Assembly: GCA_023247255.1 (NCBI GenBank)
Contig: JAHFGV010000004.1
Coordinates: 20,023 to 84,022 of the forward strand
Origin: Candidatus Omnitrophota bacterium
Lineage (GTDB): Bacteria; Omnitrophota; Gorgyraeia; Aquiviventales; Aquiviventaceae
Length of the DNA stretch: 64,000 bases
Direction: 5' to 3'
Shown: one piece after another, positions 6,101 through 62,345 of the stretch
How positions within the stretch are numbered: the first letter of the stretch is position 1
Layout: the number at the start of each line of letters is the position of its first letter
The notes under the pieces: model-generated
The model's input: the letters and a program-made list of their open reading frames with translations, nothing else
Told to the model about the DNA's origin: nothing
Database searches by the model: none
Program-made: the position numbers and the translations under genes

Positions 6101-9100
6101 GTCATTTAGGGTCTGATAGTTTTCTTGAATGGGTTGGTATGCGGTCCCACCGTTAGTGGAAAGTTCCAACTTCACTAAGGATACGGTACCTGTATTCGTC
6201 CAGGCAATAGTCCTGGACTGAGCCACCGTCCAGATTTCGGCACCGTTGGGCGCGGTCAGGGTAAAACCGGCCTTGATCTTGAAGTCCGCATTCGAGATAT
6301 CGTTGGCTGTCGCATCGACAGGATCACTCAAACGCACACGGCCCTGGGCGGTAATCGTATCTGGAATCGTCCAGGCAAAGGTACCATTGTTAGGAGTCAG
6401 ACCAGCGATTGTCGTCCATGTGCCGCCGGAATTGGTGGAATACTCAATCTTGGCATTGGATACCGAACCGGTCTTAGCCCATGTAATGTTCTGCACACTT
6501 CCTACCACCCATTGCTCGGTCCCGTTAGGAGCAGTCACCGTGAAGTCTCCAGTAATGCGGAAATCGGCATTGGAGTCGTCCAAAGCTCCAATATCATTCG
6601 GATCGGACACCCGCACCCGAACTGTGTTTGAGATGGCATCTGGAACCGTCCACCCGTAGCTGCCGATACTGGGGGCGCTAGCGTTGATGGTCTGCAAGTC
6701 GGCGTTGAAGCCATCGCGGGAGTACTGGAGCTTGACATTCGGAATCGTGCCCACGATTCCCCAGGTGATGTTCTGAACCTGCCCCACCCGCCACTGCTCG
6801 GCACCGTTCGGTGAGGTCAAGGTGAAGATTACCCGTATTCGGAAGTCGCCATCCGAGGTGTCGAAGGCCTCGGCATCGGTTGTCTGCGATACACGCACCC
6901 TCACGCTGCCGGTCACATTGTCCGGTACGGTCCATCCGTAACTGCCGGTGTTGCTGGTTGAGCTTGTAATCAGGTTCGGGAAACTCGAGCCACTGTCTGT
7001 AGAATAGTCGATCTTCACGAAACTAACCGTACCGTTCGTCAGCCATGTGATTGTCCGCGCGCTGCCTACTGCCCACACTTCACCGCCGTTGGGCGCGGTC
7101 ACTGTAAAACCTGCTTGGATCTTAAAGATGACATCGGAGGCGTCATTGACGGTGGCGTCGTTCGTATCGCTGACCTTGACCAGACAGTTGGTTGAAATAT
7201 TGTCAGGGATAGCCCAGGCGAAGCTACCCGTATTGGATGTGGATGCGGTGATGGGGGCGTAGAGGCCGCCGCCATTCGTTGAAAATTCCAGTTTAACGAA
7301 CGGAATGGATCCGTTTCGATCCCATGTAACCGTGCGAACCGAGCCGACGGTCCATTTCTCCCCGCCGTTGGGGGCCGTGATCCGCAGGAAACCTTGAATC
7401 TTGAAATTAGTGTTTGAGGCGTCGCTAGCCGTGGTATCGTTCACATCCGATACCTTGAGGCGCGCGGCTGTCGTAATGGCGTCTGGGATCGTCCAGGCGT
7501 ACGTGCCAATATTCGCTATCGAAGATGCAACGACGCTCGGGTAGGTTGCCCCACCATCCGTAGAATATTCAAGCTTAACGTTCGCCACAGTCCCTGCACT
7601 GATCCAGGTGATGTTCTGTACACTGCCCACCGTCCAGGCTTCGCCTCCGTTGGGGGCGGTGACTGTGAAACCGGCCCGGATCTTGAAGTTGCCGTTGGAG
7701 GTGTCAAAGGCATCAACGGTATCGGTGACATCCGACACACGGATTCTCACCGTCGCTGAAATCGCATCGGGAACCGTCCACGCAAAGGTCCCTGTGTTGG
7801 GCGCGGAGGTGGCGATCCCGTTGGGATACGTGGTGCCGCCATTCGTCGAATACTCAAGCTTGACGTTGGCCACCGTCCCCGCAGTCGTCCAAGTAATACC
7901 CTGACTCACTCCAACCACCAACACCTCGCCTCCGTCCGGTGCTGTCATTGCGAAGCTGGCCTTGACTTTGAAGTCCGCATCCGAGGCGTCGAACGTACCG
8001 GCATCGGCCGCATTGGATACGCGAAGGCGCATAGTCGTGGTGATTGCGTTCGGAATCGTCCAGTTGTAGCTGCCCGTATTTGACGAAGCGGCCGTGATGA
8101 CGTTGGGATAGCTAGAACCCCCGTCCGTCGAGTACTCGAGCCTGACGTTGGGTATCGTCCCAAAGGTCGACCATAGGATGGATTGTGTCGTACCGACGGT
8201 CCATTTCTCCCCACCGTTGGGAGCCGTCAGGTTGAAGCTACCACGAATCGTGAAGCTGGCGTTTGACTCGTCATAGACCGTCGCATCCGTCACGTCGGTA
8301 ACCTTTACCTTCACCGTGGTCGATATCGCATCCGGAATGGTCCATGCAAAGGGCGTTCCAGTCGTCGCGTTGAGCGACGTGGCAATGAGGCTGCCAACCG
8401 GATAGGTCGTGCCACCGTCTGTTGAGTATTCGAGTTTAACATTGGCGATCGAACCGGCTTTGGTCCAGCTAATGTTCTGGTTGGATTCAACGGTCCAAAT
8501 CTCTCCCCCGTTGGGCGAGCTCAAGGTGAGGGACCCCTTAATCTTGAAGTTGGCGTTGGACTCGTCATAGGCATCCGGATCCAGCACATCTTCAACCTTG
8601 ACCCGCAACGTCGTTCCGATCGCATCTGGAATCGTCCAGGCATAGGACCCCGTGTTTGTCGTCGATGCGCTGATCGCGTTGGGATACGTCGTGCCACCAT
8701 TGACAGAGTAAGAGAGTTTCACATTGGCAACGTTGCCCACCGTTGTCCAGGTAATGTTGCGGGTTTCCCCAACGACCCAGACTTCCCCACCGTTGGGGGA
8801 ACTGAGCACGAACCCCCCCATGATCTTGAAGTTAGCGTTGGAGGCGTCAAACACAGTGGAATCCGATACATCGGTGATCCGGACTCGAACCTGTGTGCTC
8901 GTGGTGGTTCCCAAGACCCACGCGTAGCTGAGGGCACTGGCAGGGGTAGTCGCCACGATCAAGTTAGGATAGGTTGTTCCACCGTCGGTTGAGTATTCCA
9001 GCTTAGCGTTGACCATCGATCCGGTCTTGGTCCAGGTAATCGATTGTGTGGAACCGGCCGGCCACTTTTCTCCCCCGTTAGGCGATAGGAGCGTAAAAGA

Positions 9101-12100
9101 ACCGGCGATCTTGAAATTGCCGTTTGATGCGTCGAACACCGTAGAATCCGACGTATCGGTAATCTTGACTTTCACCGTGGAGGACATGTTGTCGGGAGTC
9201 GTCCAGGCAAAGCTGAGTGCCGAAGCGCTGACTGAGGAAGTAATCGCGCTCGGATAGCTCACCCCACCATCGGTGGAGTAGTCCAAACGTGCCGTGGCGA
9301 TTGAACCCGTCTTCGTCCAGGTGATGTTCTGGGTCGCACCAACGATCCAAACCTCCCCGCCGTCCGGCGCGGTGAGGGTGAAGGAACCGGCGATCTTAAA
9401 GTTCCCATTCGATGTGTCATTTACGGTTGCATCCGTCAGATGAGTGATTTTCACTCTAACCGTCGATGAAAGGGTGTCCGGAATCGACCAGACGTAACTG
9501 AGCGCAGCGGCTGGACTCGAGAGTGTAATGACATTCGGGTATGTCGATCCGCCGTCGGTGGAGTACTCAAGCTTCACAGTGACAATGGTACCGGTCTTCG
9601 CCCAGGTAATGTTCTGGGAGGAGCCGACGATCCATGTCTCGCCACCGTTGGGGGCATTGAGCGTCAAGGATGCCTTGATCGTAAAGTTGGCATCTGAAAC
9701 ATCCACCACAGTCGCATCGTTCTCATCGCTGATTTTGACCTTCAGGCTGGTGTTAATAGCATCAGGGATCGTCCAGGCATAGCTCAGCGGCGCCGCAGGT
9801 GCCGATGCAGTGATCAGATTCAAATAGGTCGTCCCACCATCCGTTGAATATTCGAGCTTCACGTTCGCAAAGGAACCCGTTCGCGTCCACGTAATGTTCC
9901 GGGAGGCACCGACGATCCAGACTTCAGCGCCATTGGGTGAGGTGAGGGTCACCGACCCCTTGATCTTGAAATTGGCGTCCGAAACATCTGTCACAGCTGA
10001 GTCACCCGTATCCGTGATCTTCACCCTGACCCCTGTTGAAAGGGCGTCCGGCACGATCCACGCGTAGCTCAGCGTCCCGGCCGATGTGGAAGCCGTGATG
10101 AGACTGGGATAGGTCGTGCCTCCATCGGTCGAATAGCGCAACTCCACGTTCGGAAAGGATCCTGTCCGCATCCAAGTGATAGCGCGACTCTCCCCCACCA
10201 CCCAGACCTCGCTACCGTTTGGTTCACTCAGAGTCACGGAACCCCGGATGTTGAAGTTCGCGTTCGACTCATCGTACACGCTGGAATCCGCTGTATTCGT
10301 TACCTTGATCTTGGCCTGCGTCGTTGGCGTATCGGGAATCACCCACGCGTAGGGAGTCCCCGTCGTTGCTGAAACCGACGCCACGATCAAATTCGGATAG
10401 CTCGTACCCCCATTGGTGGAATATTCGAGTTTCACGTTGGCGATCGAGCCGGTCCTCGTCCAGGTGATGTTCTGCGTCGTCGCGATGAGCCATGCCTCCG
10501 CCCCATTGGCAGCGGTGACGGTCAGGCTACCTGCGATCTTGAAGTTGGTGTTCGAGATATCAAACACAGAGGAGTCGCTCACATCGGTCACCTTGACGCG
10601 GGCGGTGGTTGTGATCGCGTCGGGAATCGTCCAGCTATAGCTGCCGGCCGATGCAGAAGTGGAGGCCAGGATGACATCCGGATAGCTGACGCCACCGTCG
10701 CTTGAGTATTCCAACTTCACATTGGCAATCGAACCGACCTTGGACCAAGTGATTGGCTGGCTTGCCCCAACAATCCACGTTTCGCCGCCATTCGGGGCAT
10801 TGAGTGTCAGCGAACCCTTAATGGCAAAGTAAGCGTTGGAGACAGCGCTCACCGTAGGATCGCTTACGTTGCTCAAGCGGACTTTCACCGTATTGCTAAT
10901 AGCGTCAGGAATCGTCCATGCGTAAGCAGACGGCGTGGACGGCACCGAGGCGGTAATCAGGAAGGTCTGCAGTTCATCGGCAAAACCGTTCTTCGAATAC
11001 TCGAGCTTCACGTTCGGAATGGTCCCAGTCTTTGTCCAGGTGATGTTCTGGGTATCAGCCACGACCCATATCTCACCACCATTCGGCGCCGTGACGGTGA
11101 GGGAACCCTTGATACCTAAGTTGGCATTAGAATCATCGAAAACACTCGTGTCACCCGTGTCGGTGATGCGAACCTTTACGGTGTTTGAAATATCATCTGG
11201 AATCGTCCATGTGTAACTCAGGGTAGCGGCAGCGGTGGAAGCAATGATGACTTTTCCCGGATCCGGCCAGGTGATACCACCGTCAGTCGAATACTGCAGC
11301 TTCACATTTAAGATCGAGCCAAATTTCGTCCAGGTGATGTTATAGGAGGAGCCGACGATCCATACTTCACCCCCATTGGGTGCTGTAATCGTCAACAGAC
11401 CCTGGATCTTGAAGTTCGCGTTGGATTCATCAAAGACCGTGGAATCCGACACATCACTCACCCGCACCTTCACCGTTGTGGCTGGGGCATCCGGAATGGT
11501 CCAGGCATAGGGGGTACCGCTCGTTGCAAAGACTGAGGCGATAATCAAATTCGGGTAGGTGGCGCCGCCATCGGTTGAGTATTCCAGCTTCACGTTGGCA
11601 ATAGAGCCCATCTTTGACCAGGTGACGTTCTGAGTCGTTGAAATGGGCCAGGCTTCACCGCCGTTGGGCGAAATCAACAACAAGGAGCCGCGGATCTTGA
11701 AGTTACCGTTTGACACATCGAACGCATTGGCATCCGACGCATCGCTGATACGAACCTTGACTGTAGTCGAGATCGCATCGGGCACGGTCCAGGCGTAGGT
11801 GCCGGTGTTTGAAGTCGAGGCAATAATGAGATTCGGGTAGGTAGCGCCGCCATCCGTCGAGTATTCGAGCTTAACGTTCACCACGGAGCCCGCGGTCGTC
11901 CAGGTGATGTTGCGACTTTCCCCGACCGCCCATACCTCCCCGCCGTTCGGTGAGGTCAGGACAAAACCACCCATAACTTTGAAGTCAGCGTTGGAAGTAT
12001 CGTAAACCGTCGAGTCCGAGGCATCCGTAACCTTCAGCCGTACCGTTGCAGAGATCGCGTCGGGAATCGTCCACGCGTAGATACCGGTGCCGGCTCCCGT

Positions 12101-15100
12101 AGAAGCCGTGATGAGATTCGGATAGCTGGTCCCTCCATTCGTCGAATACTCAAGTTTCACGTTCGTGATCGATCCGACTTTAGTCCAACTCACGTTCTGT
12201 GAAGTGCCCACGGCCCAGGCCTCGCTGCCGTTCGGGGCGATGAGAGTCAGCGAACCGACGATCTTGAAATTCGCATCCGACGCATCGTTCACCGTCGTAT
12301 CAGCGTTGCTGGTGACATTGACCCGCAGTTGAGTCCCGATCGCATCGGGAATGGTCCAAGCATAAGGGGTACCGGTCACGGCATCTGCAGAAGCGGAAAT
12401 AACCGTGGGATAGGTGCTGCCGCCATCCGTCGAGTATTCGAGCTTCACCGTCGCAAACGTGCCCTGCTTCGTCCAGGTAATGTTCTGGCTGGTGCCTACG
12501 ATCCAGACTTCCCCGCCGTTGGGGCTGGTGAGGGCAATTTGACCTTTGATCTCGAAGTTCGCGTTGGAGGCATCGTTGACTGTAGCATCCCCGGTATGGG
12601 TGATCTTTACGCGCAGCTGGGTACCTATCGCATCGGGAACCGACCAGGTATAGCTGCCGCTCGTCGCGCTCGTTGAGGAAGCAATGATGTTGGGGTAGGT
12701 CGTGCCGCCATTCGTTGAGTACTCGAGTTTGACCGTCGCGATGGTGCCGGTCTTCGTCCAGGTGATGTTGCGACTCTCGCCAACCTTCCAGACCTCGACG
12801 CCATTCGGAGAGGTCACTGTGAGTGAGCCTTTAATCTCAAAGTGAGCGTTGGAGATATCCACTACCGTGATGTCTGCAGCATCGCTGGCCCGGACCTTGA
12901 GCGTTGTGCCGATGGCATCGGGAACCGTCCAGGCAAAGTTCAAGGGGCTGGCTGGGGCGGAGGCGCTGATTAAGAAAGTCTGGAGCTCATCGGAAAAACC
13001 GTTCGTCGAGTACTCCAACTTCACGTTGGCAAACGAACCGGTTCGCGTCCATGCGATGTTCTGGCTCGCACCCACGATCCACGTCTCACCCCCATTGGGG
13101 GCGCTTACCGTAATCGAGCCTCGGATTTTGAAATTGGCATCAGAATCATCGAAAACCGATGCGTCGGCGGCATCGCTCACCCGAACCCGCAGCTGTGTTC
13201 CGATCACATCGGGAATGGTCCATGAATACTGGCCGTTGTCCGCACCGACAGGTGGATCCGTATTCGCGCTCGTCGAAGCCGTGATAAGATTGCCAGCGGG
13301 CCATGTGGCCCCGCCATCCGTCGAGTACTGCAGTTTCACATTCGTAATCGCTCCAAAGACATTCCAGGTGACGTTCTGGGTCGCCCCAACGACCCAAACC
13401 TCACTACCATTCGGGGCCGTCAGTGTCACACTCCCTTTAATCGAGAGATTGGCGTTGGAAAGATCGCTGACCGTTGCGTCGGAGGCATCAGAGACCCGAA
13501 GTTTCACCGTAGCCGATGGGGTGTTCGGAATCGTCCAGGCGTAGAGCCCGTTGTTGTCAACCGGCGGAGGATCAGCCGGTGCAGAGGCGGTGATGACGTA
13601 GGTCTGGAGCTCATCGGAAAAACCATTCGTCGAGTATTCGAGCTTGACGTTGGGCAGCGAGCCGGTCCGGGTCCAGGTGATGTTTTGCACGGTGTTGATC
13701 TGCCATCCCTCGCCACCATTGGGGGCGGTCAACAGGAGGCTTCCACGAATCTTGAAGTTGACGTCCGAGGTATCGAAAGCATCCGTATCTGCTGCGTCGC
13801 TCACTTTCACTCGCACGGTCGTTGAGATCGCATCCGCCACCGTCCAGGAGTAGGATCCGCTGTTGGAGGCCGAGGCCGTGATAACATTCGGGTAGGTGCT
13901 GCCGCCGTCGGCGGAGTATTCCAATTTCACATTGGCTGCGGTTCCAACAGTCGTCCAAGTAATGTTCTGGGCGCTGCCAACGGTCAAGACCTCCCCGCCG
14001 TTGGGGGCAGTGAGGGTAAGACCCGCCTTGATCTTGAAGTTCGCGTCCGATACATCTGAGACATCGCTTGGGAAGTCCACATCGGATACCTTTACCTTAA
14101 CGGTGGCGCTCGGGGTGTTGGGGATAGTCCAAGCATAGCTGAGCGATGAAGCCACTGTGGTTGCCACAATCAGGTTCGGGTAGGTCGTCCCGCCGTCGGT
14201 CGAGTATTCGAGTTTGGCGTTGGCGATGGATCCGATACGCGTCCAGGTGACGTTCTGGGAATTTCCTACCGTCCACTTCTCGCCACCGTTTGGAGCAGTC
14301 AGGGTCAGCACACCGACAATCTTGAAGACCGCGTTCGACTCATCCTGCACTGTGGCATCGCTTGTGTCACTCACCCGAACCTTGGCCGTCGCCGTAATCG
14401 CATCCGGCAGAGTCCAGGCGTAGGTACCGGTCGCGGCATCTGTCGATGCAGTGATCAGATTTGGATAGGTGGATCCGCTGTTCGTAGAGTACTCAAGCTT
14501 AACGTTGGTGATGGAACCGGTCCTTGTCCAGGTGACAGCGCGGCTGCTGTTAACCGTCCAGAGTTCCGCGCCATTGGGTGCGGTAAGCGTCAAGGCCCCT
14601 TTAATCGTAAAGTTGGTATTGGATACGTCGTTCACGGTAGAGTCGCTGGCATCAGACACACGAACCTTCAATTGCGCGCCGATGGCGTCTGCGATGGTCC
14701 ATGCGTAGCTCAGCGGTGCTGCCGGTGTCGATGCGACGATGGTAAACGTCTGGAGCTCATCGGCGAAACCGTTCTTTGAATACTCCAGTTTCACGTTAGC
14801 GATCGAACCCTGCTTCGTCCAAGTAACGTTCTGAGAGGAACCGACGATCCAGGTTTCCCCACCGTTGGGAGCAGTGAGCGTTACAGAACCCTTGATCGTG
14901 AAGTTCGCGTTGGTGTCATCGGTCACCGTTACGTCATCCACATTTGTGATCCTCACCCGAAGCTGTGTGCCGATGGAATCGGGAATCGTCCAGGCGAAGC
15001 TTAAGCTCGATCCGGCCGTGGAAGACACGATCACATTCGGATAGGTGGTGCCGCCGTTTGTCGAATACTCGAGCTTAACGTTTGGAATGGTCCCAGTCTT

Positions 15101-18100
15101 GGCCCAGGTGATGTTCCGACTATCGTTGACGATCCACGTCTCACCGCCGTTGGGTGAACCCAACGTCAGTGTTCCCTTAATGGTGAAATTTCCGTTGGAG
15201 GCATCCGTCACGGTGTTGTCGTTGACGTCGGTAATCCGGACGCGCAGATCGGTATCGATTTCATCCGGAAGGGTCCAGGCATAGCTGAGATTCGCGGCAG
15301 GCGTTGATGCGGTGATCGCAATGGGAAACGTGGCACCGCCATCCTTTGAGAGATCAAGCTTCGCGTTGGCGATCGATCCCCCTCGTGTCCACGTAATGTT
15401 TCGGCTCTCGCTGACTTTCCAGACCTCGCCACCGTCCGGTGCTTGGATGAAAAGCGATCCCTTGATGCTGAAATTCGCATCCGATGGGTCCGTTACATTC
15501 GTGTCGTCGAGCTGGGTGATTCGGACACGTCCCTGCGTGGTCGGGTTATCCGGAACGGTCCAAGCATAACTCGTATCCGTAGCAGGAACCGTGTTGCTGA
15601 TCAGATTGCCCACGGGATAGGTCGTACCACCATCGGTCGAATATTCGAGCTTGAGATTCCCAGTCAGTGTTCCCGTCTTCACCCAGGTGATATTCTGTGT
15701 CGCGTTGATCGGCCAGCCTTCATTACCGTTAGGTGCAGTGACGGTAATCGAGCCACGAATCGTGAAGTCGGCATCCGAGGTGTCGTTTAGGTCGAGGACA
15801 TCGGGTGTGGTGTCGTAGGTAACCTTCACGCGCCGCGTGGTCCCGATAGAATCCGGAATGGTCCAGGGATAGCTCAGATTTCCACCCGATGTGGAGGCGA
15901 CGATAAGATTCGTATAGCTCACACCACTGTTGGTTGAGTACTCCAACTTAACGTTCGGTAGCGTTCCCGTCTTGGTCCAGGTAATGTTTTGGGTCGTCCC
16001 CACAACCCAGGACTGGCCTCCGTTAGGAGCCGTCAAAGCAAGGGAACCCCTGATGGTGAAATCTGCATCGGAGGCATCGATGACCGAAGCATCTGAGGCA
16101 TCACTGATCCGGATCCGGCACTGGGCGCTGATGCCATCGGCCACTATCCAGGTGTAGCTACCGGCGCCCGCAGGCGTTGAGGAGACGATGACATTGCCGG
16201 CAGGCCATGTTGAGCCGCTGTCCGTCGAGTATTCCAGTTTTGCGTTGGCGATAGCCCCCAGGGTTGTCCAGGTAATGTTCTGGGGATCTGCGACTACCCA
16301 AGTCTGGCCGCCGTTGGGCGCTGTGATGGTCAGTTTGCCCTTTAGCCGAAAGTTATTCTCTGACGCATTTGCCGCAGCCTTACCTGCCGTGACCGGTGTG
16401 ATTCTCACCCGGGCTGTCGTCGATAGGGGCGCATTAGACGGAATCGTCCAGGCATACTGCCCGTTATTCCCACCAGTCGGTGGATCGGTATCCGATGGGG
16501 TAGAGGCAATGATGAGGTTCGGGTAAGTAGATCCTCCATCCGTCGAGTACTCCAGTTTGACGGCCCCTACCGTACCGGTGAGGTTCCAGGTAATGTTCTG
16601 GCTCGTCCCAAGCTCCCAAACCTCTCCGCCATCAGGAAAGGTGATGTTGAGAGATCCTTGTATCGTGAAGTTGGCGTCCGATTCATCCGTAACAGAAGTC
16701 TCGTTGAGGTATACGATCTTAACCCGCAGATCATTGTCGATCGCATCGGGGACGGTCCATGCGTAGCTGCCAGCGGTAACCGCCACGGAATTAGTAATCA
16801 TGTTGCCTGGATCGGGGTAGGTCGCCCCGCCATCCGTCGAGTAAAGCAACTTGACGTTGCCACTCAAGGTGCCGGTCTTCGTCCAGGTAATGTTCTGCGT
16901 ATCTCCGACTACCCAGCTCTGACTCCCATTGGGTGCCGTGAGGGTTAACGTACCCTTCACCGTGAAGCCGGTGTCCGAATCATCGTAGACCGTGCTGTCG
17001 GCCGCATTCTCCAAGCGCACTTTAACATTCGTTCCAATGATGTCGGGAACAGGGTTCCAGTTGTATGAACCCACATTCGAGATCGACGCTCCACCTGCAA
17101 TCGGGTTGCTGAAAGTAGCGCCATCGGTGGCGTAGTAGAGCTTTACGCCGGAGACGGTCCCATTCGTGTTCCAGGTAATGTTCCGGGTCGTGTCCCCAAC
17201 AAACCAGATAAGATTCGTATTGGGCTGCGTCACGGTGAGCTGGCCTTTGATCGTGAAGTTGGCATCCGAGGTATCGAAGACCGTGGTGTCAGTGACCAGC
17301 GTCACCTTAACGCGAAGCTGAGTCTCGATAGCATCTGGGATCGGGTTCCAGTTGTATGACAGCGCGCTGGCAGCCGTGGTGCTGTTGATCAGGGTGTCGT
17401 AACTTGTACCACCGTTGGTCGAGTAACGCAGCTCGACATTGCCGGCCATCGAACCCGTGGTTCCCACTCGCGTCCACGTAATGTTGCGGTTCGTCTCGCC
17501 GACCTTCCAGACCTCGCCGTTGTTGGGTGCAACGAGGGTCAGCGTTCCCTTGATGGAAAAGTTGGCATCTGATTGATCCTCAACACTCGTATCGGTCACC
17601 AACCGCACGCGCACCCGGATATCGCTGTCGATGTCATCCGGGGTGGCCCAGTTGTACGGCGTACCGGAGACTGGATCCAAACCCGTGGCAATCAGTTTGC
17701 CTGCTGGAAACGTCGCCCCGCCGTCCGTTGAGTAGTGCAGCTCTACGTTGCCAATCGAACCGGTCTTGGTCCAGCTGACCGGACAGGATTGGCCGACGGT
17801 GCAGGTGCCACCGCCATTGGGCGCTCCCAAGACCACGGTCCCCTTGATGGAAAAGTTGGAGTCTGAGGCGTCATCGGCGACGTTAACGGTATCTGAAGGA
17901 ATAACTCTGACTTTCACCGTGTTGTTGATCCCGCCGGTGACATCAGGAATCGGAGACCAGCTGTAGCTCCCGCTTGCCCCTCCGATCGGAGTCGAGGCCA
18001 CAATGACATTCGGGTAGGTGCTGCCTCCATCCGTCGAATAGCGAATTTCCACTGTGCCAGAGACCGTGCCGTTGTTGTTCCAGGTGATGTTGCGCGAGCT

Positions 18101-21043
18101 ACCAATCGGAAAGACGTCGCTGCCGTTGGGGGAAGTCACCTGAACGGCTCCCTTGATTCGAAAGACGTTGTTGGAGGTATCAAAGATGGCGGGCGCATCT
18201 ACATTGCTGATCTTGACGCACGTGTTGCCACCGATGGCATCCGGAATCGTCCACGGGAAGCTTCCGGCCGAGGCCAGCGTCGATGCTACGATCGATGTGT
18301 ACGTACCCCCGCATCCTGTGCTTGAATACTCCAACTTCACGTTATTGACGCCAGTACCGTTGATGGTCCAGGTAATGTTCTGCGTGGTGCCGACAAGCCA
18401 CACCTCGGTTCCACTGTTAGGGCTGTCGACGACAATCGAGGCCACGATTGTGAAATCCGCATCGGATTCATCGAACGTCGTGGCATCCCCGTTTTGCTCC
18501 ACTTTAATTCGCGAGAACGACCCGATTGCAGCAGTCGGAATGGTCCAGGCATAAGTACCCGTTGCCGAAGCGGCTGTCACGATCGTATCTCCGTTTGGCG
18601 CTGCGTAGGAACCCCCACTGTTCTTGGAATAGTAGATGTTCACGCCTGTGGGGGGCAATGTTCCGGTAGAGGTCCAAGTGATGTTGTAGGTCTTTAGGGT
18701 TTCCCAGTTCGGGCTCTGGGGTCCGTTTGGCGTAGTGACGGTGATTCGCCCTTTAATGCTGAAATCAATGTCGGACTGGTCGTTTACACCTGAGGCATCT
18801 GAGGAAAGTTCGGCACCGACCCGTAGGTCGGTGCGAATCTTGTCCGGAACCGGTGTCCAGTTGTAGGTCCCGACGCTGGGAGTCAACCCTGTCGCAATCG
18901 TGCTATCGAAAGTGGTACCGCTGGCTGTATAAAGCTTCAACGTCACGGTGCCGTTGTCATCCAAGTTCCCCGTCCGACCCCATGTGATTGTGCGGCAGTT
19001 CGCTCCAGGACAAGAGTCGCCTACGAACCAGGACACCGCGGTGTTCGGAGAGGTCACCGTGAGTGTTCCTTTAACAGTGAAGTCGGCATTGGAAACATCA
19101 GAGTTCCGAACGAGCAGGTCCAAGTCGGTGATCTTCACCCTCAATGTAGACACGTCGAGATCCGTCGCCCCAATGCTCGCGGGAATCGTCCAGGGAATGG
19201 TATCCAGATTCGCGCAGACGTCGGAGGCAATGCCCAACGGGTAGGTGCTGCCGCCGTTCGTTGAAAGCTCAATCTTCAGTCTGTGTGCAGGCCCTGCTGA
19301 ATTGCACGTTCCACTTGATTCCAGCTCGGCGGCGTGCTTCCAGGTGATATTGTGGCTCTCTCCGACTTTCCATACCTCGCTGCCGTTGGGGCTTTTGACA
19401 GTCAACGGCGTAAACTCAGTGACGAAATATTGGACATCGGCTGCAATCGCCGCAGCGATGCTCTGGTTGGTTCCTGAGCGCACGCTGGCAAAAGTGGTCG
19501 AGGTGGTGGCCGCTCCAATTGGCGGTAGCAGCTCCACGGCAAACCCAAGATCATCCGCATAGTCTCTGGTCGTGTTGCTGGAACCTGTCGCCGTCGTTGT
19601 CGCTGCTCCAAGAACCAGTGTCCGGCTAGGTCTCACCGCGGTGAGTGAGGCGGTTTTCTGAGCCGGTAGAACATAGCCAGTCGTGCCACCGGCTCCCAGG
19701 CCGTGCGAAGCAGAACCGCTCAGTTTCAACTGTGTGGATGTGCAGGCGGGTGAGCAGTCGCTGCCGGTAAGAACGTGCCAGTTACCGTTCACTGGGTTGC
19801 TGACGGAACCCCCAACGCTATGGCCGCTTACATTGATCAGATCGCCGGTACTCAAGCCGTGAGCAGCGCTTGTCGTTATCATGATCGGCGTAGCGTCCGT
19901 CGATGAAGAAATCGCAATGCGGGCGGGTGTGCCGCCCGTGCCGCCTCCCCAGGAGTGGGTGCCTTTTTGAACCAAGCTGATTCCATCGATGAGATCCACA
20001 ACGTGGTAGCGTATACGTCCCTCGCTATTTGTGTTGGTCGACGCATAGCCTCTGGTAAAAGTAATGGTGGTGCCGCTCGTTACTGTGCCCCGAGCGTAGA
20101 TTTGATTGTCCCATCCTGCTATCCCTGAGCCACCGGTGAAAGAGGTGAACAACAACGCGTTCGCCCCGCCGCTGGAAAGACCAGGGCTCAGGGGCCCGGA
20201 GTTGACAGGCAGCGGCCCTCCACCGTCGGGATCCAGTCCGTTGTTCGTGGCGGTTTGGTTCGTGGCTGCGGTGCCAGGCACCGGCAGCGAGACTATCCCG
20301 GTGTAAACTGTCGTATCCGTCAAAAACTCGATGACCTGCCACACGATCTGAGTGGCTTTGGTGCCTGTGCCAGCAAACCGCTCGACTCTCAGATTGGAGT
20401 TATCGATAAACGAAGGGAGTAGGTAGAGTTGATGCGTCTGGTTTTGGCTGGTGAAGGCGCCTTTGGTCATGACAATCGGCACGGCGTGACAGGGAAAGGT
20501 TATGGGAGTACACCCGCTCGTATCCAACGCCATCGGGATAGTGATGGTCTTGTTCAAGTCTGTCGGCTGCAGGCTCGAAATGCCTCGCTGTACGCTGACT
20601 CCATCGACGAACTCAATAACCTGCCAGGAGACGCTCGCGCCGCTGGTGCCACCCCCACGCTCGATGTCAATGGTGTTGTTATCCTCAAACTGGGCGACGA
20701 AAAACCAGTTCTGATCGCGTTGTTGGCTAATGCTGTCGGCTTCGGTAGACAGCAAGATGATGGATTTGGATTGGTCCACCGGGTAGGTCAGGTTGATGGC
20801 TTGAACGACGTCGTCCGTGTCAAAGTTGGCGATGCCGCTTTGTATCCTTTTAATCTGCACGGCTTCTGCAAGGGGGCCCCAGAAACTCCAGATGAGGACA
20901 GCAATGAGCGCTGTCCAACCGGCGAGAAACCGTGGAACAAAAACGGTCGGTCGCGCCCGTACAGGCCGCATCAGAAAATCAGGGGCGTCATTGCTGTGCA
21001 TCATCAGCATCTGTGGGAATGCCTTCCGAAAGCTCCGGCTCAA
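3161..21043 (-). CDS. giant repetitive cell-surface protein (~5,960 aa; ~50 tandem Ig-like/Kre9_KNH-like ~85-90-aa repeats; adhesin/S-layer-like)
   Basis: Single uninterrupted 17.9-kb ORF. The N-terminus has a hydrophobic signal or anchor (FLAGWTALIAVLIWSFWGPLAEA). The probable start is MRPVRARP at ~20971, which removes the overlap with the upstream lipoprotein gene. A ~640-aa unique N-region precedes about 50 repeats of consensus GSLTLTAPNGGExWxVGxxQNITWTxxGxIxNVKLEYSTDGGxTYPNxIxAST...YAWTIPDAIxTxxRVRVSDxxDxTVxDxSDANFKI. A ~900-aa unique C-terminal region is Ser/Thr- and coiled-coil-rich. Confidence 0.85.
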   Translation of the reverse strand: MSRSFRKAFPQMLMMHSNDAPDFLMRPVRARPTVFVPRFLAGWTALIAVLIWSFWGPLAEAVQIKRIQSGIANFDTDDVVQAINLTYPVDQSKSIILLSTEADSISQQRDQNWFFVAQFEDNNTIDIERGGGTSGASVSWQVIEFVDGVSVQRGISSLQPTDLNKTITIPMALDTSGCTPITFPCHAVPIVMTKGAFTSQNQTHQLYLLPSFIDNSNLRVERFAGTGTKATQIVWQVIEFLTDTTVYTGIVSLPVPGTAATNQTATNNGLDPDGGGPLPVNSGPLSPGLSSGGANALLFTSFTGGSGIAGWDNQIYARGTVTSGTTITFTRGYASTNTNSEGRIRYHVVDLIDGISLVQKGTHSWGGGTGGTPARIAISSSTDATPIMITTSAAHGLSTGDLINVSGHSVGGSVSNPVNGNWHVLTGSDCSPACTSTQLKLSGSASHGLGAGGTTGYVLPAQKTASLTAVRPSRTLVLGAATTTATGSSNTTRDYADDLGFAVELLPPIGAATTSTTFASVRSGTNQSIAAAIAADVQYFVTEFTPLTVKSPNGSEVWKVGESHNITWKHAAELESSGTCNSAGPAHRLKIELSTNGGSTYPLGIASDVCANLDTIPWTIPASIGATDLDVSTLRVKITDLDLLVRNSDVSNADFTVKGTLTVTSPNTAVSWFVGDSCPGANCRTITWGRTGNLDDNGTVTLKLYTASGTTFDSTIATGLTPSVGTYNWTPVPDKIRTDLRVGAELSSDASGVNDQSDIDFSIKGRITVTTPNGPQSPNWETLKTYNITWTSTGTLPPTGVNIYYSKNSGGSYAAPNGDTIVTAASATGTYAWTIPTAAIGSFSRIKVEQNGDATTFDESDADFTIVASIVVDSPNSGTEVWLVGTTQNITWTINGTGVNNVKLEYSSTGCGGTYTSIVASTLASAGSFPWTIPDAIGGNTCVKISNVDAPAIFDTSNNVFRIKGAVQVTSPNGSDVFPIGSSRNITWNNNGTVSGTVEIRYSTDGGSTYPNVIVASTPIGGASGSYSWSPIPDVTGGINNTVKVRVIPSDTVNVADDASDSNFSIKGTVVLGAPNGGGTCTVGQSCPVSWTKTGSIGNVELHYSTDGGATFPAGKLIATGLDPVSGTPYNWATPDDIDSDIRVRVRLVTDTSVEDQSDANFSIKGTLTLVAPNNGEVWKVGETNRNITWTRVGTTGSMAGNVELRYSTNGGTSYDTLINSTTAASALSYNWNPIPDAIETQLRVKVTLVTDTTVFDTSDANFTIKGQLTVTQPNTNLIWFVGDTTRNITWNTNGTVSGVKLYYATDGATFSNPIAGGASISNVGSYNWNPVPDIIGTNVKVRLENAADSTVYDDSDTGFTVKGTLTLTAPNGSQSWVVGDTQNITWTKTGTLSGNVKLLYSTDGGATYPDPGNMITNSVAVTAGSYAWTVPDAIDNDLRVKIVYLNETSVTDESDANFTIQGSLNITFPDGGEVWELGTSQNITWNLTGTVGAVKLEYSTDGGSTYPNLIIASTPSDTDPPTGGNNGQYAWTIPSNAPLSTTARVRITPVTAGKAAANASENNFRLKGKLTITAPNGGQTWVVADPQNITWTTLGAIANAKLEYSTDSGSTWPAGNVIVSSTPAGAGSYTWIVADGISAQCRIRISDASDASVIDASDADFTIRGSLALTAPNGGQSWVVGTTQNITWTKTGTLPNVKLEYSTNSGVSYTNLIVASTSGGNLSYPWTIPDSIGTTRRVKVTYDTTPDVLDLNDTSDADFTIRGSITVTAPNGNEGWPINATQNITWVKTGTLTGNLKLEYSTDGGTTYPVGNLISNTVPATDTSYAWTVPDNPTTQGRVRITQLDDTNVTDPSDANFSIKGSLFIQAPDGGEVWKVSESRNITWTRGGSIANAKLDLSKDGGATFPIAITASTPAANLSYAWTLPDEIDTDLRVRITDVNDNTVTDASNGNFTIKGTLTLGSPNGGETWIVNDSRNITWAKTGTIPNVKLEYSTNGGTTYPNVIVSSTAGSSLSFAWTIPDSIGTQLRVRITNVDDVTVTDDTNANFTIKGSVTLTAPNGGETWIVGSSQNVTWTKQGSIANVKLEYSKNGFADELQTFTIVASTPAAPLSYAWTIADAIGAQLKVRVSDASDSTVNDVSNTNFTIKGALTLTAPNGAELWTVNSSRAVTWTRTGSITNVKLEYSTNSGSTYPNLITASTDAATGTYAWTLPDAITATAKVRVSDTSDATVQDESNAVFKIVGVLTLTAPNGGEKWTVGNSQNVTWTRIGSIANAKLEYSTDGGTTYPNLIVATTVASSLSYAWTIPNTPSATVKVKVSDVDFPSDVSDVSDANFKIKAGLTLTAPNGGEVLTVGSAQNITWTTVGTAANVKLEYSADGGSTYPNVITASASNSGSYSWTVADAISTTVRVKVSDAADTDAFDTSDVNFKIRGSLLLTAPNGGEGWQINTVQNITWTRTGSLPNVKLEYSTNGFSDELQTYVITASAPADPPPVDNNGLYAWTIPNTPSATVKLRVSDASDATVSDLSNANLSIKGSVTLTAPNGSEVWVVGATQNVTWNVFGAITNVKLQYSTDGGATWPAGNLITASTSANTDPPVGADNGQYSWTIPDVIGTQLRVRVSDAADASVFDDSDANFKIRGSITVSAPNGGETWIVGASQNIAWTRTGSFANVKLEYSTNGFSDELQTFLISASAPASPLNFAWTVPDAIGTTLKVRASDAADITVVDISNAHFEIKGSLTVTSPNGVEVWKVGESRNITWTKTGTIATVKLEYSTNGGTTYPNIIASSTSATSGSYTWSVPDAIGTQLRVKITHTGDATVNDASNANFEIKGQIALTSPNGGEVWIVGTSQNITWTKQGTFATVKLEYSTDGGSTYPTVISASADAVTGTPYAWTIPDAIGTQLRVNVTSNADTTVNDASDANFKIVGSLTLIAPNGSEAWAVGTSQNVSWTKVGSITNVKLEYSTNGGTSYPNLITASTGAGTGIYAWTIPDAISATVRLKVTDASDSTVYDTSNADFKVMGGFVLTSPNGGEVWAVGESRNITWTTAGSVVNVKLEYSTDGGATYPNLIIASTSNTGTYAWTVPDAISTTVKVRISDASDANAFDVSNGNFKIRGSLLLISPNGGEAWPISTTQNVTWSKMGSIANVKLEYSTDGGATYPNLIIASVFATSGTPYAWTIPDAPATTVKVRVSDVSDSTVFDESNANFKIQGLLTITAPNGGEVWIVGSSYNITWTKFGSILNVKLQYSTDGGITWPDPGKVIIASTAAATLSYTWTIPDDISNTVKVRITDTGDTSVFDDSNANLGIKGSLTVTAPNGGEIWVVADTQNITWTKTGTIPNVKLEYSKNGFADELQTFLITASVPSTPSAYAWTIPDAISNTVKVRLSNVSDPTVSAVSNAYFAIKGSLTLNAPNGGETWIVGASQPITWSKVGSIANVKLEYSSDGGVSYPDVILASTSASAGSYSWTIPDAITTTARVKVTDVSDSSVFDISNTNFKIAGSLTVTAANGAEAWLIATTQNITWTRTGSIANVKLEYSTNGGTSYPNLIVASVSATTGTPYAWVIPDTPTTQAKIKVTNTADSSVYDESNANFNIRGSVTLSEPNGSEVWVVGESRAITWMRTGSFPNVELRYSTDGGTTYPSLITASTSAGTLSYAWIVPDALSTGVRVKITDTGDSAVTDVSDANFKIKGSVTLTSPNGAEVWIVGASRNITWTRTGSFANVKLEYSTDGGTTYLNLITASAPAAPLSYAWTIPDAINTSLKVKISDENDATVVDVSDANFTIKASLTLNAPNGGETWIVGSSQNITWAKTGTIVTVKLEYSTDGGSTYPNVITLSSPAAALSYVWSIPDTLSSTVRVKITHLTDATVNDTSNGNFKIAGSFTLTAPDGGEVWIVGATQNITWTKTGSIATARLDYSTDGGVSYPSAITSSVSASALSFAWTTPDNMSSTVKVKITDTSDSTVFDASNGNFKIAGSFTLLSPNGGEKWPAGSTQSITWTKTGSMVNAKLEYSTDGGTTYPNLIVATTPASALSYAWVLGTTTSTQVRVRITDVSDSTVFDASNANFKIMGGFVLSSPNGGEVWVVGETRNITWTTVGNVANVKLSYSVNGGTTYPNAISASTTNTGSYAWTIPDAIGTTLRVKVEDVLDPDAYDESNANFKIKGSLTLSSPNGGEIWTVESNQNISWTKAGSIANVKLEYSTDGGTTYPVGSLIATSLNATTGTPFAWTIPDAISTTVKVKVTDVTDATVYDESNASFTIRGSFNLTAPNGGEKWTVGTTQSILWSTFGTIPNVRLEYSTDGGSSYPNVITAASSNTGSYNWTIPNAITTTMRLRVSNAADAGTFDASDADFKVKASFAMTAPDGGEVLVVGVSQGITWTTAGTVANVKLEYSTNGGTTYPNGIATSAPNTGTFAWTVPDAISATVRIRVSDVTDTVDAFDTSNGNFKIRAGFTVTAPNGGEAWTVGSVQNITWISAGTVANVKLEYSTDGGATYPSVVASSIANIGTYAWTIPDAITTAARLKVSDVNDTTASDASNTNFKIQGFLRITAPNGGEKWTVGSVRTVTWDRNGSIPFVKLEFSTNGGGLYAPITASTSNTGSFAWAIPDNISTNCLVKVSDTNDATVNDASDVIFKIQAGFTVTAPNGGEVWAVGSARTITWLTNGTVSFVKIDYSTDSGSSFPNLITSSTSNTGSYGWTVPDNVTGSVRVRVSQTTDAEAFDTSDGDFRIRVIFTLTSPNGAEQWRVGQVQNITWGIVGTIPNVKLQYSRDGFNADLQTINASAPSIGSYGWTVPDAISNTVRVRVSDPNDIGALDDSNADFRITGDFTVTAPNGTEQWVVGSVQNITWAKTGSVSNAKIEYSTNSGGTWTTIAGLTPNNGTFAWTIPDTITAQGRVRLSDPVDATANDISNADFKIKAGFTLTAPNGAEIWTVAQSRTIAWTNTGTVSLVKLELSTNGGTAYQPIQENYQTLNDGVVQNTGAYTWTVEDAISTQVRIRVSSSTDSDANDASDGNFKIQGSLTITNPNGGENFPIGQLRDISWLRLGSIANVKITYSTDAGTTYPNVIVASTPANPTFYPWTVADAPTTMARVKVEDVSDATVFDASDASFNIQGNFTISAPNGGELWSVGESRNIAWSWGGTIPNVKLTYSTNSGSTYSDVIANSAPNGVGSSGTFNYAWMVPDSISSAVRVRIEDVNDANVSDVSNADFKIQGRLNIVTPNGLERWVVNEIRTISWTTAGTLPTVKLEYSTDGGATYPAGNVIVALLTNTGSYNWLVPNTVSMTSRVRVVNTADVTVSDQSDADFKIDLYKVSFRVRDLLTNNHLDQLTVSAGTPSQPGSTQPPAYTWTESGLSSIIKDKPLQYGSWSAKFSRVSYGDQTLNFVVDRDYPETAPLDVFMETQVVHIWEAVTEFAYVPAVQALPNLNPPIAAVADSLTVTSTLRRDGSTVTGPVLCQVDIYDGATLIQSFVANGPPNALGFYSSPQYNFTWSPTSLTAGKVYSVVTTINIATGGVFKTPRTLTINVEQKLQDVKHEVNKNLDVPLSQVRTDIQGTLDTFTHSISTSISTLDTAAKNSQTASNTLISAANQSQATANDLRTVANQQSAKLLTPQEINTGLPLIIRWRGPRDTQGLSLSPKITIENFDKIAVVSEVAMQPISGAQNLFEWSSEWGLAEQVITATKFQPGKTITVTVKDDAIGSFQVGTIFVKRPEGRLLMKTSAKIGETISIQLAGADNWTPLIELSADGVVLTAKTPMKKVGSDGKVTTFEYLVPESVGSLVPIGKSVVALVTESLTGFFDQGSFQFTGTSLDDLSGQIAASSASRGVIQDTYTAVKNLQGSLGGDGQLGQKLEVLKQRIDRIPKAVAEEGSNVRMKQAINDVAERISALAGDEGYDFSQLMEMGVEKGLEKSDSIQNIRKKTDTVQGATEVMQLLMENKLGGIDDPVVHVIYQ

Positions 21044-61077: not shown

Positions 61078-61334
61078 CGCTTCTTATTCTATAAAGAATA
61101 AGGAGCGGCCCCCTTTCCCGCTATACTCCGTGGCAAGTCCACCGTACATGGAAATCTAATTAGTCTTGTCTAATCTCCAATGTTCTGTGAATTTTACGAA
61201 TGACTATTCACCCGCCGCCTTCTCCGCCAAAGGCGGATCCCCTCCGGTGAAAAATCCCATCACCCTCCTTGCCCTATCGTCACCCCTCTATACTTCGCAA
61301 CGCCTCAGTATCCTTCAGCTCCAGATCAATCGAG

Positions 61335-61510
61335 AGCGGGTGATGGGATTTGGCGCTCTCCATCCTTCGCTTACGCTCGGAACTCCCAGTCGGCCACCCG
61401 TCTCGCCTAAGGAATCATGAAATTACCTGGGAATTTTCGATTGTCGATTTTGGATTTTCGATTGGAAGACGGCCGTTCAATCGAAAATCGACAATCGTCA
61501 ATCGACAATT
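61335..61510. repeat. repeat block downstream of tRNA-Gly: an 18-nt copy of the tRNA-Gly 3' end, a conserved ~65-nt segment, and a family-B palindrome
   Basis: agcgggtgatgggatttg (61335-61352) is identical to the 3' 18 nt of tRNA-Gly. It is followed by gcgctctccatccttcgcttacgctcggaactcccagtcggccacccgtctcgcctaaggaatcatg and gggaattttcgattgtcgattttggattttcgattggaagacggccgttcaatcgaaaatcgacaatcgtcaatcgacaat. Confidence 0.7.
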
Positions 61511-61577
61511 TCCTCGGCTCTCTTGATTGACCGAAGGCTCGGCTCCCTTCAAATCCCATCACAAGAGTCTAAAACCC

Positions 61578-61649
61578 AGCGGGTGATGGGATTTGAACCC
61601 ACGACTTTCACGTTGGCAACGTGACGCTCTACCACTGAGCTACACCCGC
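61578..61649 (-). tRNA. tRNA-Gly (anticodon GCC)
   Basis: The minus strand reads GCGGGTG TA GCTC AGTGGTA GAGC G TCACG TTGCCAA CGTGA AAGTC GTGGG TTCAAAT CCCAT CACCCGC T. It folds as a cloverleaf with a 7-bp acceptor stem, and the anticodon loop carries GCC. Confidence 0.85.
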
Positions 61650-61700
61650 ATCAAGAACCGTAACGAGTAACACGTTACAAGAAACAAGTCACTGTCTGCG

Positions 61701-61850
61701 TGGGCGAGAGAGGAGTTGGCGCCTTCCGCTCGTCACTGCGCTCCTCGCTTCAGGTCGGCCACCCGCCGCTCCTAAGGAATGTCAATCCTCCTATCCGTCG
61801 GATCGACGTTATTCGAAGTCGCGGCTCCTTTCAACTCCTCTCCTTTACGA
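61701..61850. repeat. repeat block downstream of tRNA-Leu: an 18-nt copy of the tRNA-Leu 3' end plus a conserved ~65-nt segment
   Basis: tgggcgagagaggagttg (61701-61718) is identical to the 3' 18 nt of tRNA-Leu. It is followed by gcgccttccgctcgtcactgcgctcctcgcttcaggtcggccacccgccgctcctaaggaat, homologous to the segment after the tRNA-Gly copy. Confidence 0.7.
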
Positions 61851-61853
61851 AAC

Positions 61854-61935
61854 TGGGCGAGAGAGGAGTTGAACCTCCACCCCTTTCGGGACAGGCTCCT
61901 AAGGCCTGCGCGTCTGCCAGTTCCGCCACTCGCCC
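61854..61935 (-). tRNA. tRNA-Leu (anticodon TAG)
   Basis: The minus strand reads GGGCGAG TG GCGG AACTGGCAGA CGCG CAGGC CTTAGGA GCCTG TCCCGAAAGGGGT GGAGG TTCAACT CCTCT CTCGCCC A. It has a long variable arm, U33, G37, anticodon UAG and discriminator A73. Confidence 0.8.
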
Positions 61936-62024: not shown

Positions 62025-62345
62025 GTGGAGCCCCACAGGATGAGCCTGTGGCACAGGCACTCCCACACCTTGGGATTTTCGATTGTCGATTTTGGATTGT
62101 CGATTGGAAGACGGTTGTTCAATCAAAAATCGACGATCGTCAATCGACAATTTCCTCGGCTCTCTTGATTGAAAGCTCATCTTCCTTCGATCTCCTTAGG
62201 ACGTTCAAAGAAACTGCCTTGGGATTTTCGATTGTCGATTTTGGATTTTCGATTGGAAGACGGCCGTTCAATCAAAAATCGACAATCGTCAATTGACAAT
62301 ATCGTGATGCAACCGTCGAGGGTTGGGGGCGCAATGGCGGGATTG
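62025..62345. repeat. family-A 5' fragment, two family-B palindromes, and a family-A 3' fragment
   Basis: ccccacaggatgagcctgtggcac (62025), then ttttcgattgtcgattttggattgtcgattggaagacggttgttcaatcaaaaatcgacgatcgtcaatcgacaat (62070-62150) and a second copy (62225-62300), then gggggcgcaatggcgggattgc (62315-62340). Confidence 0.7.

Follow-up and report, generated by a model that had tools for sequence, protein, structure and literature searches.

Structured tRNA-coupled elements without open reading frames behind tRNA genes of Omnitrophota and Planctomycetales

Transfer RNA (tRNA) genes are among the classic targets of mobile DNA. Insertion there is accepted to rest on a protein: an integrase recognizes the gene, and the element brings a replacement 3' end. 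In a 64,000-nt stretch of a Candidatus Omnitrophota genome (assembly GCA_023247255.1, contig JAHFGV010000004.1, positions 20,023 to 84,022; hereafter the window), the genes for tRNA-Leu(TAG) and tRNA-Gly(GCC) are each followed by a second copy of their own 3' end. A sequence-only reading of this locus took the duplicates for attachment-site (att) remnants of a tyrosine integrase with a single specificity, left either by miniature mobilizable elements or by deleted islands. The question is whether the DNA between tRNA and duplicate is such a remnant or a module of its own. Our best reading is that it is a gain-and-loss-prone element, a member of a previously uncatalogued family and more than an integration scar. 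Tentatively, and with slightly less than even confidence, we favor an element free of open reading frames (ORFs) that would act as a structured RNA transcribed along with its tRNA; an inverted copy of the tRNA's end would serve as guide or splint for two interchangeable tRNA 3' halves.

Duplicated tRNA ends and the element between them

The two duplicates are exact, as first reported, and unique in the window (Table 1). Each 18-mer has a sole direct copy within the 64 kb, with ≤3 mismatches allowed, and 0.05-0.06 matches are expected from dinucleotide shuffles; an origin by chance or low complexity is ruled out by these shuffle controls. It had been considered that the 18-mers might recur elsewhere as part of the repeat families A or B. 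In the window they do not, and the palindromic family B is a separate repeat inserted in the Gly element only. Each duplicate begins with C56 of the T-loop, just past U54-U55, and runs to the discriminator, position 73; hence the common break point in the T-loop is real and lies between positions 55 and 56 (55|56) in both. Beside each copy stands the shared block ATTCCTTAGGnGnGnCGGGTGGCCGAC, found at only 2 sites in the window vs 0 expected. This is the homologous segment of ~65 nt noticed before; its homology holds, but its length was underestimated, and it belongs to a longer conserved core of ~110 nt. The inverted copy of the tRNA end (termed anti), which lies 11-15 nt past each tRNA, was absent from the sequence-only reading, as was a further inverted Gly copy at 61252-61265.

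Seventeen copies of the element were found behind eight tRNA isoacceptors (Leu-TAG, Gly-GCC, Ser-CGA, Ser-GCT, Ser-GGA, Arg-CCT, Arg-TCG, and Lys-CTT) in Omnitrophota and Planctomycetales assemblies. A core-motif scan of species-representative genomes gave four matches, three of them directly 3' of a tRNA: Leu-TAG in an Omnitrophica metagenome-assembled genome (MAG), Ser-CGA in a Planctomycetales MAG, and Arg-CCT in another Omnitrophota MAG. These three copies have an identical layout, with ends matched to their own tRNA. A scan of metagenome contigs added further copies, including a tandem pair (L006; loci outside the window are given L numbers). A covariance model built from eight copies then reached divergent members beyond the motif, after Gly in L001 and after Ser-GCT in L002, and later members after Arg in L016, after Leu in L024 and L128, and after Arg and Lys in L027. 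One longer and divergent copy, after tRNA-Gly in L027, scores 14 bits (E=0.11) and was recognized by reading the sequence. The search for the conserved segment elsewhere, proposed together with the first description, was thus rewarded: the core lies 3' of tRNAs in other assemblies of both groups.

All copies lie on the strand of their tRNA and have a fixed order: the tRNA, a trailer of 11-21 nt that is often T-rich, the anti, the core, and a direct copy of tRNA positions 56-73. The conserved element is ~130-150 nt long; from tRNA end to copy end, the distance is 147-166 nt, the window Gly element excepted. Within the core, GAAGGGAG is followed by the 5' strand of helix P2, a linker, hairpin P3 (6-8 bp, loop GACGnnnAGGA), CUUCCUUAGGA, the 3' strand of P2, GGGUGGCCGACC, P4, and CGGA(A)GGCGC. 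The joining strands (GAAGGGAG, CUUCCUUAGGA, GGGUGGCCGACC, and CGGAGGCGC) are near-invariant between phyla, and several GGA/GGAG motifs lie in loops. Two other identities for the core were rejected. A small ORF was dismissed by eye, its frame not being conserved between copies. A tRNA pseudogene was suggested by the class-II-tRNA-like words GGTGGCCGA and GAAGGCGC, but no tRNA-model match was obtained at E<10, and the resemblance is unproven.

In the window, positions 54-73 of tRNA-Leu are the template of both ends of the Leu element, which is canonical, intact, and 153 nt long from tRNA end to copy end; its nearest relative is the copy in L004. The Gly element measures 243 nt because a palindromic repeat of 115 nt is inserted in it. 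The model gives it 71 bits, or 26 bits when run without filters; its P2 no longer pairs, and the repeat stands in place of P3. Its anti (15 nt) and direct copy (18 nt) are still perfect despite the decay of the core. It is a degenerate member of the family, interrupted by an unrelated repeat. The family-B palindromes ascribed to both enclosed segments therefore occur in the Gly element, as a secondary insertion, and not in the Leu element. A degenerate third element beyond the Gly copy was considered and set aside: a second Gly anti is exact, but the core-like GGCGGCGGGTG behind it scores just 4.8 bits. Together they may be a remnant of an older, outward-displaced element, a weak assignment.

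Table 1. Features of the tRNA-Leu(TAG) and tRNA-Gly(GCC) elements in window coordinates
Feature	Sequence	Position	Strand	Basis or remark
tRNA-Leu(TAG), intact		61854..61935	minus	ARAGORN; Rfam tRNA 54.3 bits
Leu trailer, 11 nt, between tRNA end and anti	GTTTCGTAAAG	61843..61853	minus	sequence
Leu anti, exact reverse complement of tRNA-Leu positions 54-66	GAGAGGAGTTGAA	61830..61842	minus	P1 5' strand; P1 covariation
Leu core		61719..61829	minus	covariance-model match 145 bits; covariation
Leu core, J1/2 and P2 5' strand	J1/2 = AAAGGAG	P2 5' strand within 61818-61825	minus	
Leu P3 hairpin	loop GACGGATAGGA	61781-61807	minus	
Leu invariant block	ATTCCTTAGGAGCGGCGGGTGGCCGACC	61753-61780	minus	contains P2 3' strand
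Leu P4 region and following segment	GCGGAAGGCGC	61719-61752	minus	
Leu direct copy of tRNA positions 56-73	CAACTCCTCTCTCGCCCA	61701..61718	minus	exact; P1 3' strand
tRNA-Gly(GCC), intact		61578..61649	minus	ARAGORN; Rfam tRNA 76.6 bits
Gly anti, exact reverse complement of tRNA-Gly positions 54-68	GTGATGGGATTTGAA	61548..61562	minus	inverted repeat, 15 nt, 100%
Gly 5' core remnant	GGGAGCCGAGCCTTCGG	61531..61547	minus	alignments; P2 5' strand no longer complementary to partner
Palindromic family B repeat in place of P3 hairpin		61416..61530	minus	direct and inverted repeat family; other copies
Gly 3' core	ATTCCTTAGGCGAGACGGGTGGCCGAC ... GAGAGCGC	61353..61415	minus	shared block; covariance-model 71 bits over 61335-61563
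Gly direct copy of tRNA positions 56-73	CAAATCCCATCACCCGCT	61335..61352	minus	exact
Second Gly anti, complementary to tRNA positions 58-71	GGGTGATGGGATTT	61252..61265	minus	inverted repeats; 69 nt past Gly copy
Core-like segment after second Gly anti (weak)	GGCGGCGGGTG	61209..61219	minus	covariance model 4.8 bits over 61197-61257

Several other repeats and signals were seen near these elements. The palindromic repeat belongs to a family of ~106-143 nt (TTGTCGATTGACGATTGTCGATTTT ... AATCGACAATCGAAAAT) that resembles repetitive extragenic palindromic (REP) sequences or MITEs (miniature inverted-repeat transposable elements). Further window copies lie at 62067-62172, 62216-62321, and ~2780-3010 (a tandem pair); its flanks, AAGAGAGCCGAG and TTTCATGATTCCTTGG, one per side, resemble words of the element core. 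A terminator-like hairpin (GTAACGtgttactCGTTAC then GGTTCTTGAT, a weak consensus match) occupies 61658-61680 on the minus strand, between the Leu distal copy and tRNA-Gly. A second conserved unit of ~70-100 nt (GGGAGCCCC ... GATTCCTTATCGGGGCGACCGATAGGGGGGAACC-loop-GGTTCCCCCCTATGGAGCG) lies just 5' of Arg and Gly tRNA genes in Omnitrophota and a Planctomycetales MAG (L128, 1612-1712 and 2257-2357; L129, 60-161; L016, 3726-3797; L002, 2750-2819). It has short motifs in common with the element and weak model matches of 11-12 bits, and it may be a related family. In L007, a 345-kb metagenome contig, several repeats with GCCGCGACGGGTGGCC, CCTTAGG, and CGGCGGGTGGCC at 7340-7740 lie away from tRNAs and lack a covariance-model match; they might represent a repeat with no relation to the element, or else a distant relative that has been rearranged.

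Fold of the core and match of the ends to the tRNA

Covariation was assessed in a 15-row alignment fitted to the model, so that the figures lean toward the structure. Paired cells amount to 92% vs 77% in column shuffles, 19 of 32 pairs have changed on both sides, and none of 500 shuffles reaches any measure. Pairing drops to 30-46% when the partner strands are slid. P2 appears as GCCGC/GCGGC, GGCCC/GGGCC, GCCCCGCC/GGCGGGGC, and GCCGCGGC/GCCGCGGC. P3 stems differ in sequence in almost every copy with complementarity kept. P4, outside the model, is by eye a hairpin of free sequence that often has tandem G.A pairs at its base, and these pairs would work only on the tRNA-sense strand. The closing stem P1, which anti and distal copy can form, has 11-13 bp. 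A pseudoknot between AAGGGAG and CUUCCUU was dropped; the strands are complementary in canonical copies and not in divergent ones. Comparative analysis shows the core to be a structured module with predicted covarying helices P2, P3, and P4. The proposal of scars of deleted islands does not survive this result, since the interior is a conserved module with covarying helices in two phyla.

Free-sequence stems are also a property of integron attC sites, and the element could, improbably in our estimate, be a folded single-stranded DNA recombination site like attC or the attP hairpin of the CTX phage, served in trans by a tyrosine or HUH enzyme. The hairpin of tRNA positions 54-68 and anti would be recognized by structure and cut near its foot at 55|56, with replication then resolving what is produced. 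The junction indeed lies 2 nt inside the 5' foot of a perfect hairpin of 13-15 bp, G.U pairs are not enriched over A.C overall, and the T-arm, a universal DNA hairpin, could explain the many tRNA targets. This explanation leaves the exact end of the copy at position 73 unaccounted for, and the ~110 nt of conserved unpaired sequence exceed the need of any known folded att site. The tandem G.A pairs and the fixed tRNA orientation point to a transcript, and no integron-type integrase or HUH gene was seen among the examined ORFs.

The ends of the element are locked to the tRNA. Among 13 measured copies, tRNA and distal copy are identical at positions 54-55 in none, at each of positions 56-73 in 11-13, and at positions 74-78 in 3-7. 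The sharp edges at 55|56 and 73|74 define the duplicated unit as exactly C56 to discriminator. Overall, the distal fragment is 96% identical to the tRNA (225/234 positions), including in copies that are old or degenerate. All 13 copies, behind the eight isoacceptors, have a matched anti with 7-15 nt exact; the direct copy is 15-19 nt exact in 11, and the other two have decayed. Positions 69-73 are retained in the copies, though the anti can pair only with positions 56-68 of the copy. Where the distal copy has drifted, as in L004, L010, and L024, it is to the tRNA, not to the copy, that the anti remains matched. An anti of at least 9 nt exact was found within 60 nt downstream of 16 of the 42 tRNAs in the fetched loci vs 0 in the upstream control; five of the 16 have lost core and copy and are anti-only or decayed remnants. 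Complementarity between anti and tRNA is, hence, the most persistent feature of the element. The single integrase specificity suggested at first does not fit these results: one core stands behind eight isoacceptors, with ends matched to each.

The anti can thus have two partners. In predicted foldings, most of its bases pair with the 3' half of the tRNA itself in 7 of 13 copies and with the distal copy in 3 of 13 (mean pairing probability >0.5). Of five minimum-energy folds inspected, four have the acceptor stem (tRNA positions 1-7) closed by the distal copy. Such thermodynamic predictions take no account of tertiary structure in the tRNA or of the order in which the transcript is made. The mutually exclusive pairings they predict are consistent with a host cis-acting RNA switch, in which the core would be an aptamer-like or protein-binding domain and P1 would compete with the anti:tRNA pairing. 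Such a switch might gate the folding, processing, or stability of the upstream tRNA, or free a stable spacer-derived small RNA. The near-invariance of the joining strands between phyla fits this proposal, as do a P1 locked to the tRNA even in the old, diverged copies L016_Arg and L027_Arg and GGA/GGAG loop motifs reminiscent of protein-sponge RNAs. We nevertheless consider it unlikely. Individual copies are dispensable and often decayed, they occupy different positions among the four tRNAs of one cluster in close relatives, and the element tree does not track tRNA identity. The tRNA, transcribed first, would normally fold before the anti exists, and no ligand or protein partner is known.

The two partners of the anti also recall a splicing guide, and an intron-like small ribozyme was considered. 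The anti would align U55 with the proximal or distal C56, and the core would cleave and ligate at both sites to give a spliced tRNA and a circular RNA of ~150 nt. The second 3' half would serve as a fail-safe, and the reverse reaction would insert the element into new tRNAs. One guide is indeed offered identical sequence at both junctions; the anti can take as its partner either U54-U55 together with the proximal positions 56-68 or the distal 56-68, as in the P1 and P10 helices of group I introns, and the core is compact, highly conserved, multi-helical, and of small-ribozyme size. The core has no likeness to known ribozyme or intron models in Rfam, though, the cleavage sites would fall inside a continuous helix, and L004 combines an intact core with a decayed distal "exon". 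We regard the ribozyme as very improbable.

Gain, loss, and comparison with known systems

PtsN homologs place the window in a relative of Candidatus Omnitrophica and were used to fetch orthologous Arg(TCG)-Lys(CTT)-Leu(TAG)-Gly(GCC)-ptsN clusters from relatives. Element occupancy varies among them. The window and L001 have elements after Leu and Gly; L024 and L128, after Leu; L016, after Arg, with remnants after Leu and Gly; and L027, after Arg, Lys, and Gly. L019, L021, and L030 have none, and their spacers are 12-57 nt. An identical PtsN sequence adjoins a filled Leu-Gly spacer in L128 and an empty one of 8 nt in L130. Because elements are gained and lost between related genomes, "miniature, integrase-less, mobilizable" was a fair description. 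Polymorphism within the strain was sought in L012 and L013, whose covariance scores are identical to those of the window and uninformative. Public assemblies of the same organism (L011, ENA ERZ27276474 k141_1983974; L014; and L015) are broken at the tRNA region or immediately upstream of ptsN, probably because of the repeats there.

Sequence comparison of the cores shows that element similarity follows neither tRNA identity nor host. The three Leu elements compared are only 68-69% alike in the core. The window Leu core is nearest to an Arg-CCT element (77%), and that of L024_Leu is nearest to a Planctomycetales Ser-CGA element (85%). The P2 and P3 variants of L128_Leu are the same as those of L027_Arg and L006. 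In L010, the anti is that for Ser-CGA and the distal copy is of the Ser-GGA type, which is what would be left by a deletion between T-loop repeats in a cluster like that of L002.

Gene content and database searches gave no parent for the element. It contains no ORF. A search with 34 window ORFs matched 44 Pfam families, and the 25 of these listed include no recombinase, transposase, or reverse transcriptase; the ORFs neighboring the elements in L001, L002, and L004 are housekeeping genes that differ by locus, with no integrase among them. A homing endonuclease was considered as a partner, as an ORF with a LAGLIDADG_3 domain (Pfam E=1e-11; L002, 1264-2328, plus strand) lies between tRNA-Ser(TGA) and tRNA-Ser(CGA), whose start it overlaps; its flanks are without element features, and it was rejected. 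The core had no match in phage and plasmid collections (blastn) or in viral contigs (core-word scans followed by a covariance-model search of 84 seeded loci), which speaks against a phage or plasmid origin within these limited collections; a parent could lie outside them. With Rfam 15, including group I and II introns, small ribozymes, riboswitches, and HEARO, only the two tRNAs pass. The isolated element matches no family even at E<10, and a known RNA family among these is thereby rejected; the best score overlapping the element region, ~21 bits, falls on the palindromic insert and not on the element proper. No description of such an element turned up in full-text searches of the literature; Dada transposons (PMC8869645) and the coevolution of HARP with pre-tRNA (PMC12439589) proved not comparable.

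In genomic islands, the tRNA is intact and a displaced 3' fragment is repeated at the far junction, the principle of Islander (PMC4383910). The att-like geometry recognized in the sequence-only reading is of this kind: the tRNA is intact, and a 3' fragment from the T-loop to the tRNA end recurs at the far junction, the hallmark of islands and prophages in tRNA genes (tDNA). Tandem stacking and patchy distribution are likewise shared and fit site-specific integration. An ordinary tRNA fragment is present as well: L027 has at ~2125-2155, ~35 nt past tRNA-Leu, a degenerate tRNA-Leu 3' half with GGTTCGA (GGATGGTTCGACGCCTCTCTCGCCTAC), without anti or core, which looks like an ordinary displaced fragment. 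The elements could, therefore, be classical att remnants: an island or phage integrated by a tyrosine integrase in each T-loop and later deleted to its attL/attR arms, or a cis-mobilizable element (CIME) mobilized in trans, the conserved interior being attP arm DNA bound by integrase and accessory proteins. We rate this as distinctly unlikely. The integrase is absent from and beside the copies at the loci examined, the core is absent from the phages, plasmids, and viral contigs searched, and the stems covary instead of keeping their sequence, unlike protein-binding arms. The fold shared across phyla, the anti, which is outside the att model, the eight tRNAs served by one core family, and the undecayed distal fragment all argue against an integrase scar or a CIME. 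Unlike tDNA islands, in which one lineage has one tRNA target, these elements are of 130-150 nt and not kilobases, and they have a conserved interior and an extra inverted tRNA-end copy.

Small size, lack of ORFs, and a presumed reliance on functions in trans are shared with CIMEs and MITEs, whose ends, in contrast, are not tailored to each target gene. Unlike MITEs, the element has no terminal inverted repeats, its left end (the trailer) and right end (GGAGGCGC) not being inverted, and its repeat is the 18 nt ending at the tRNA end, not a short fixed target-site duplication. Unlike CIMEs, it has no autonomous parent in the collections searched.

Guide-bearing mobile RNAs include group I and II introns, which pair through internal guide and exon-binding sequences (IGS/EBS), the bridge RNA of IS110, and the omega RNA of TnpB/IscB. 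As in these, a structured core stands beside a target-complementary segment, here of 13-15 nt, and the flank of the conserved end equals the target. The element differs in having no match to intron or omega-RNA models in Rfam and no adjacent recombinase, nuclease, or reverse-transcriptase gene, and its target sequence is duplicated, not split. With riboswitch or attenuator platforms and T-box leaders, it shares a conserved multi-helix domain closed by P1, a P1 strand with a predicted alternative partner, and a tie to a specific tRNA. It differs in lying 3' of a tRNA and not 5' of an mRNA, and in being dispensable and mobile; the alternative partner is the T-arm and acceptor strand of the tRNA itself, and no ligand is known. 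Small RNAs derived from tRNA-operon spacers, such as 3'ETS-leuZ of Escherichia coli, are lineage-specific unstructured sponges. The element is similarly embedded in what would be a tRNA transcript, and by analogy its release by tRNA-processing enzymes might be expected; unlike it, these RNAs have no tRNA-derived ends and are not mobile.

Elsewhere in the window, a single ORF of ~5,959 codons (3164-21043, minus strand) marks a giant gene.

A proposed shared splint for two tRNA 3' halves

In the favored reading, the element would be transcribed together with its tRNA and work as RNA. The anti would be a guide or splint able to exchange one strand for another, pairing with the 3' half of the tRNA itself or with the distal copy (P1), and the transcript would hold two interchangeable 3' halves with one shared partner. 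Insertion would be harmless to an essential tRNA gene because the tRNA would be functional whichever half is used. The 18-nt direct repeats would be the junctions of an insertion at 55|56, and recombination between them would lead to precise loss and also to tandem build-up. With such a shared splint, insertion into single-copy essential tRNA genes would be tolerated, both ends would stay locked to the tRNA sequence, and copies could be lost precisely or stacked.

Several points weigh against this reading. The comparison of L128 and L130 suggests exchange of a whole tRNA-flanked segment or a chimeric short contig: the two have different tRNA-Leu alleles and the same sequence from the first base of tRNA-Gly on, and L130, a contig of 790 nt, is possibly chimeric. 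Over all modeled pairs, G.U occurs in 11 cells vs 17 for A.C, with most A.C cells belonging to helix ends, to misaligned divergent copies, or to two 3-bp hairpins that are themselves doubtful. As G.U is not in excess, the case for RNA rather than single-stranded DNA, inferred from sequence, is an indirect one. The core of L004 is intact with a decayed distal copy, so the role of the core does not strictly depend on a perfect copy. Hairpin-templated correction or gene conversion could suffice to keep anti and copy matched to the tRNA, with no role at the RNA level, and the core could be so extremely conserved across phyla because of a host function and not a selfish one. No enzyme or mechanism of movement was identified at the examined loci, the candidates being a trans-acting recombinase, chemistry at the RNA level, and plain recombination; the re-tailoring of anti and copy to a new tRNA is unexplained, and the sample comprises 17 copies from two related phyla.

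A bolder version of the favored reading is that the element is a selfish RNA. A catalytic or RNA-guided core of ~110 nt would insert at tRNA 55|56 with the anti as internal guide and carry a spare tRNA 3' half, so that the host gene would work with the element in place or removed, and it might be excised as a circular RNA of ~150 nt. We consider this doubtful. If true, the element would be a miniature T-loop "intron" or a guide-directed insertion element with a built-in fail-safe. The junction logic is that of the already known insertion elements that duplicate tRNA 3' ends; these are not known to have a structured core, a guide-like inverted copy, or a range spanning several tRNAs. An RNA that catalyzes or directs its own insertion would be categorically new.

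In these genomes, the known junction geometry is produced by a tiny element without ORFs, whose conserved part is folded and whose ends are a putative base-pairing guide and a spare target copy. Programs that search for islands, and the annotation of tRNA fragments, will be misled in these phyla by the anti segments and the doubled tRNA ends. A guide-based mechanism, if true, could be reprogrammable. If the element acts as RNA, it would represent a new class of tRNA-coupled structured RNA in bacteria of the Planctomycetes-Verrucomicrobia-Chlamydiae (PVC) group, with a bistable three-strand design, or, alternatively, a novel means by which a mobile element targets an essential gene yet leaves it unharmed; either outcome would be of interest to the fields of non-coding RNA and mobile elements.

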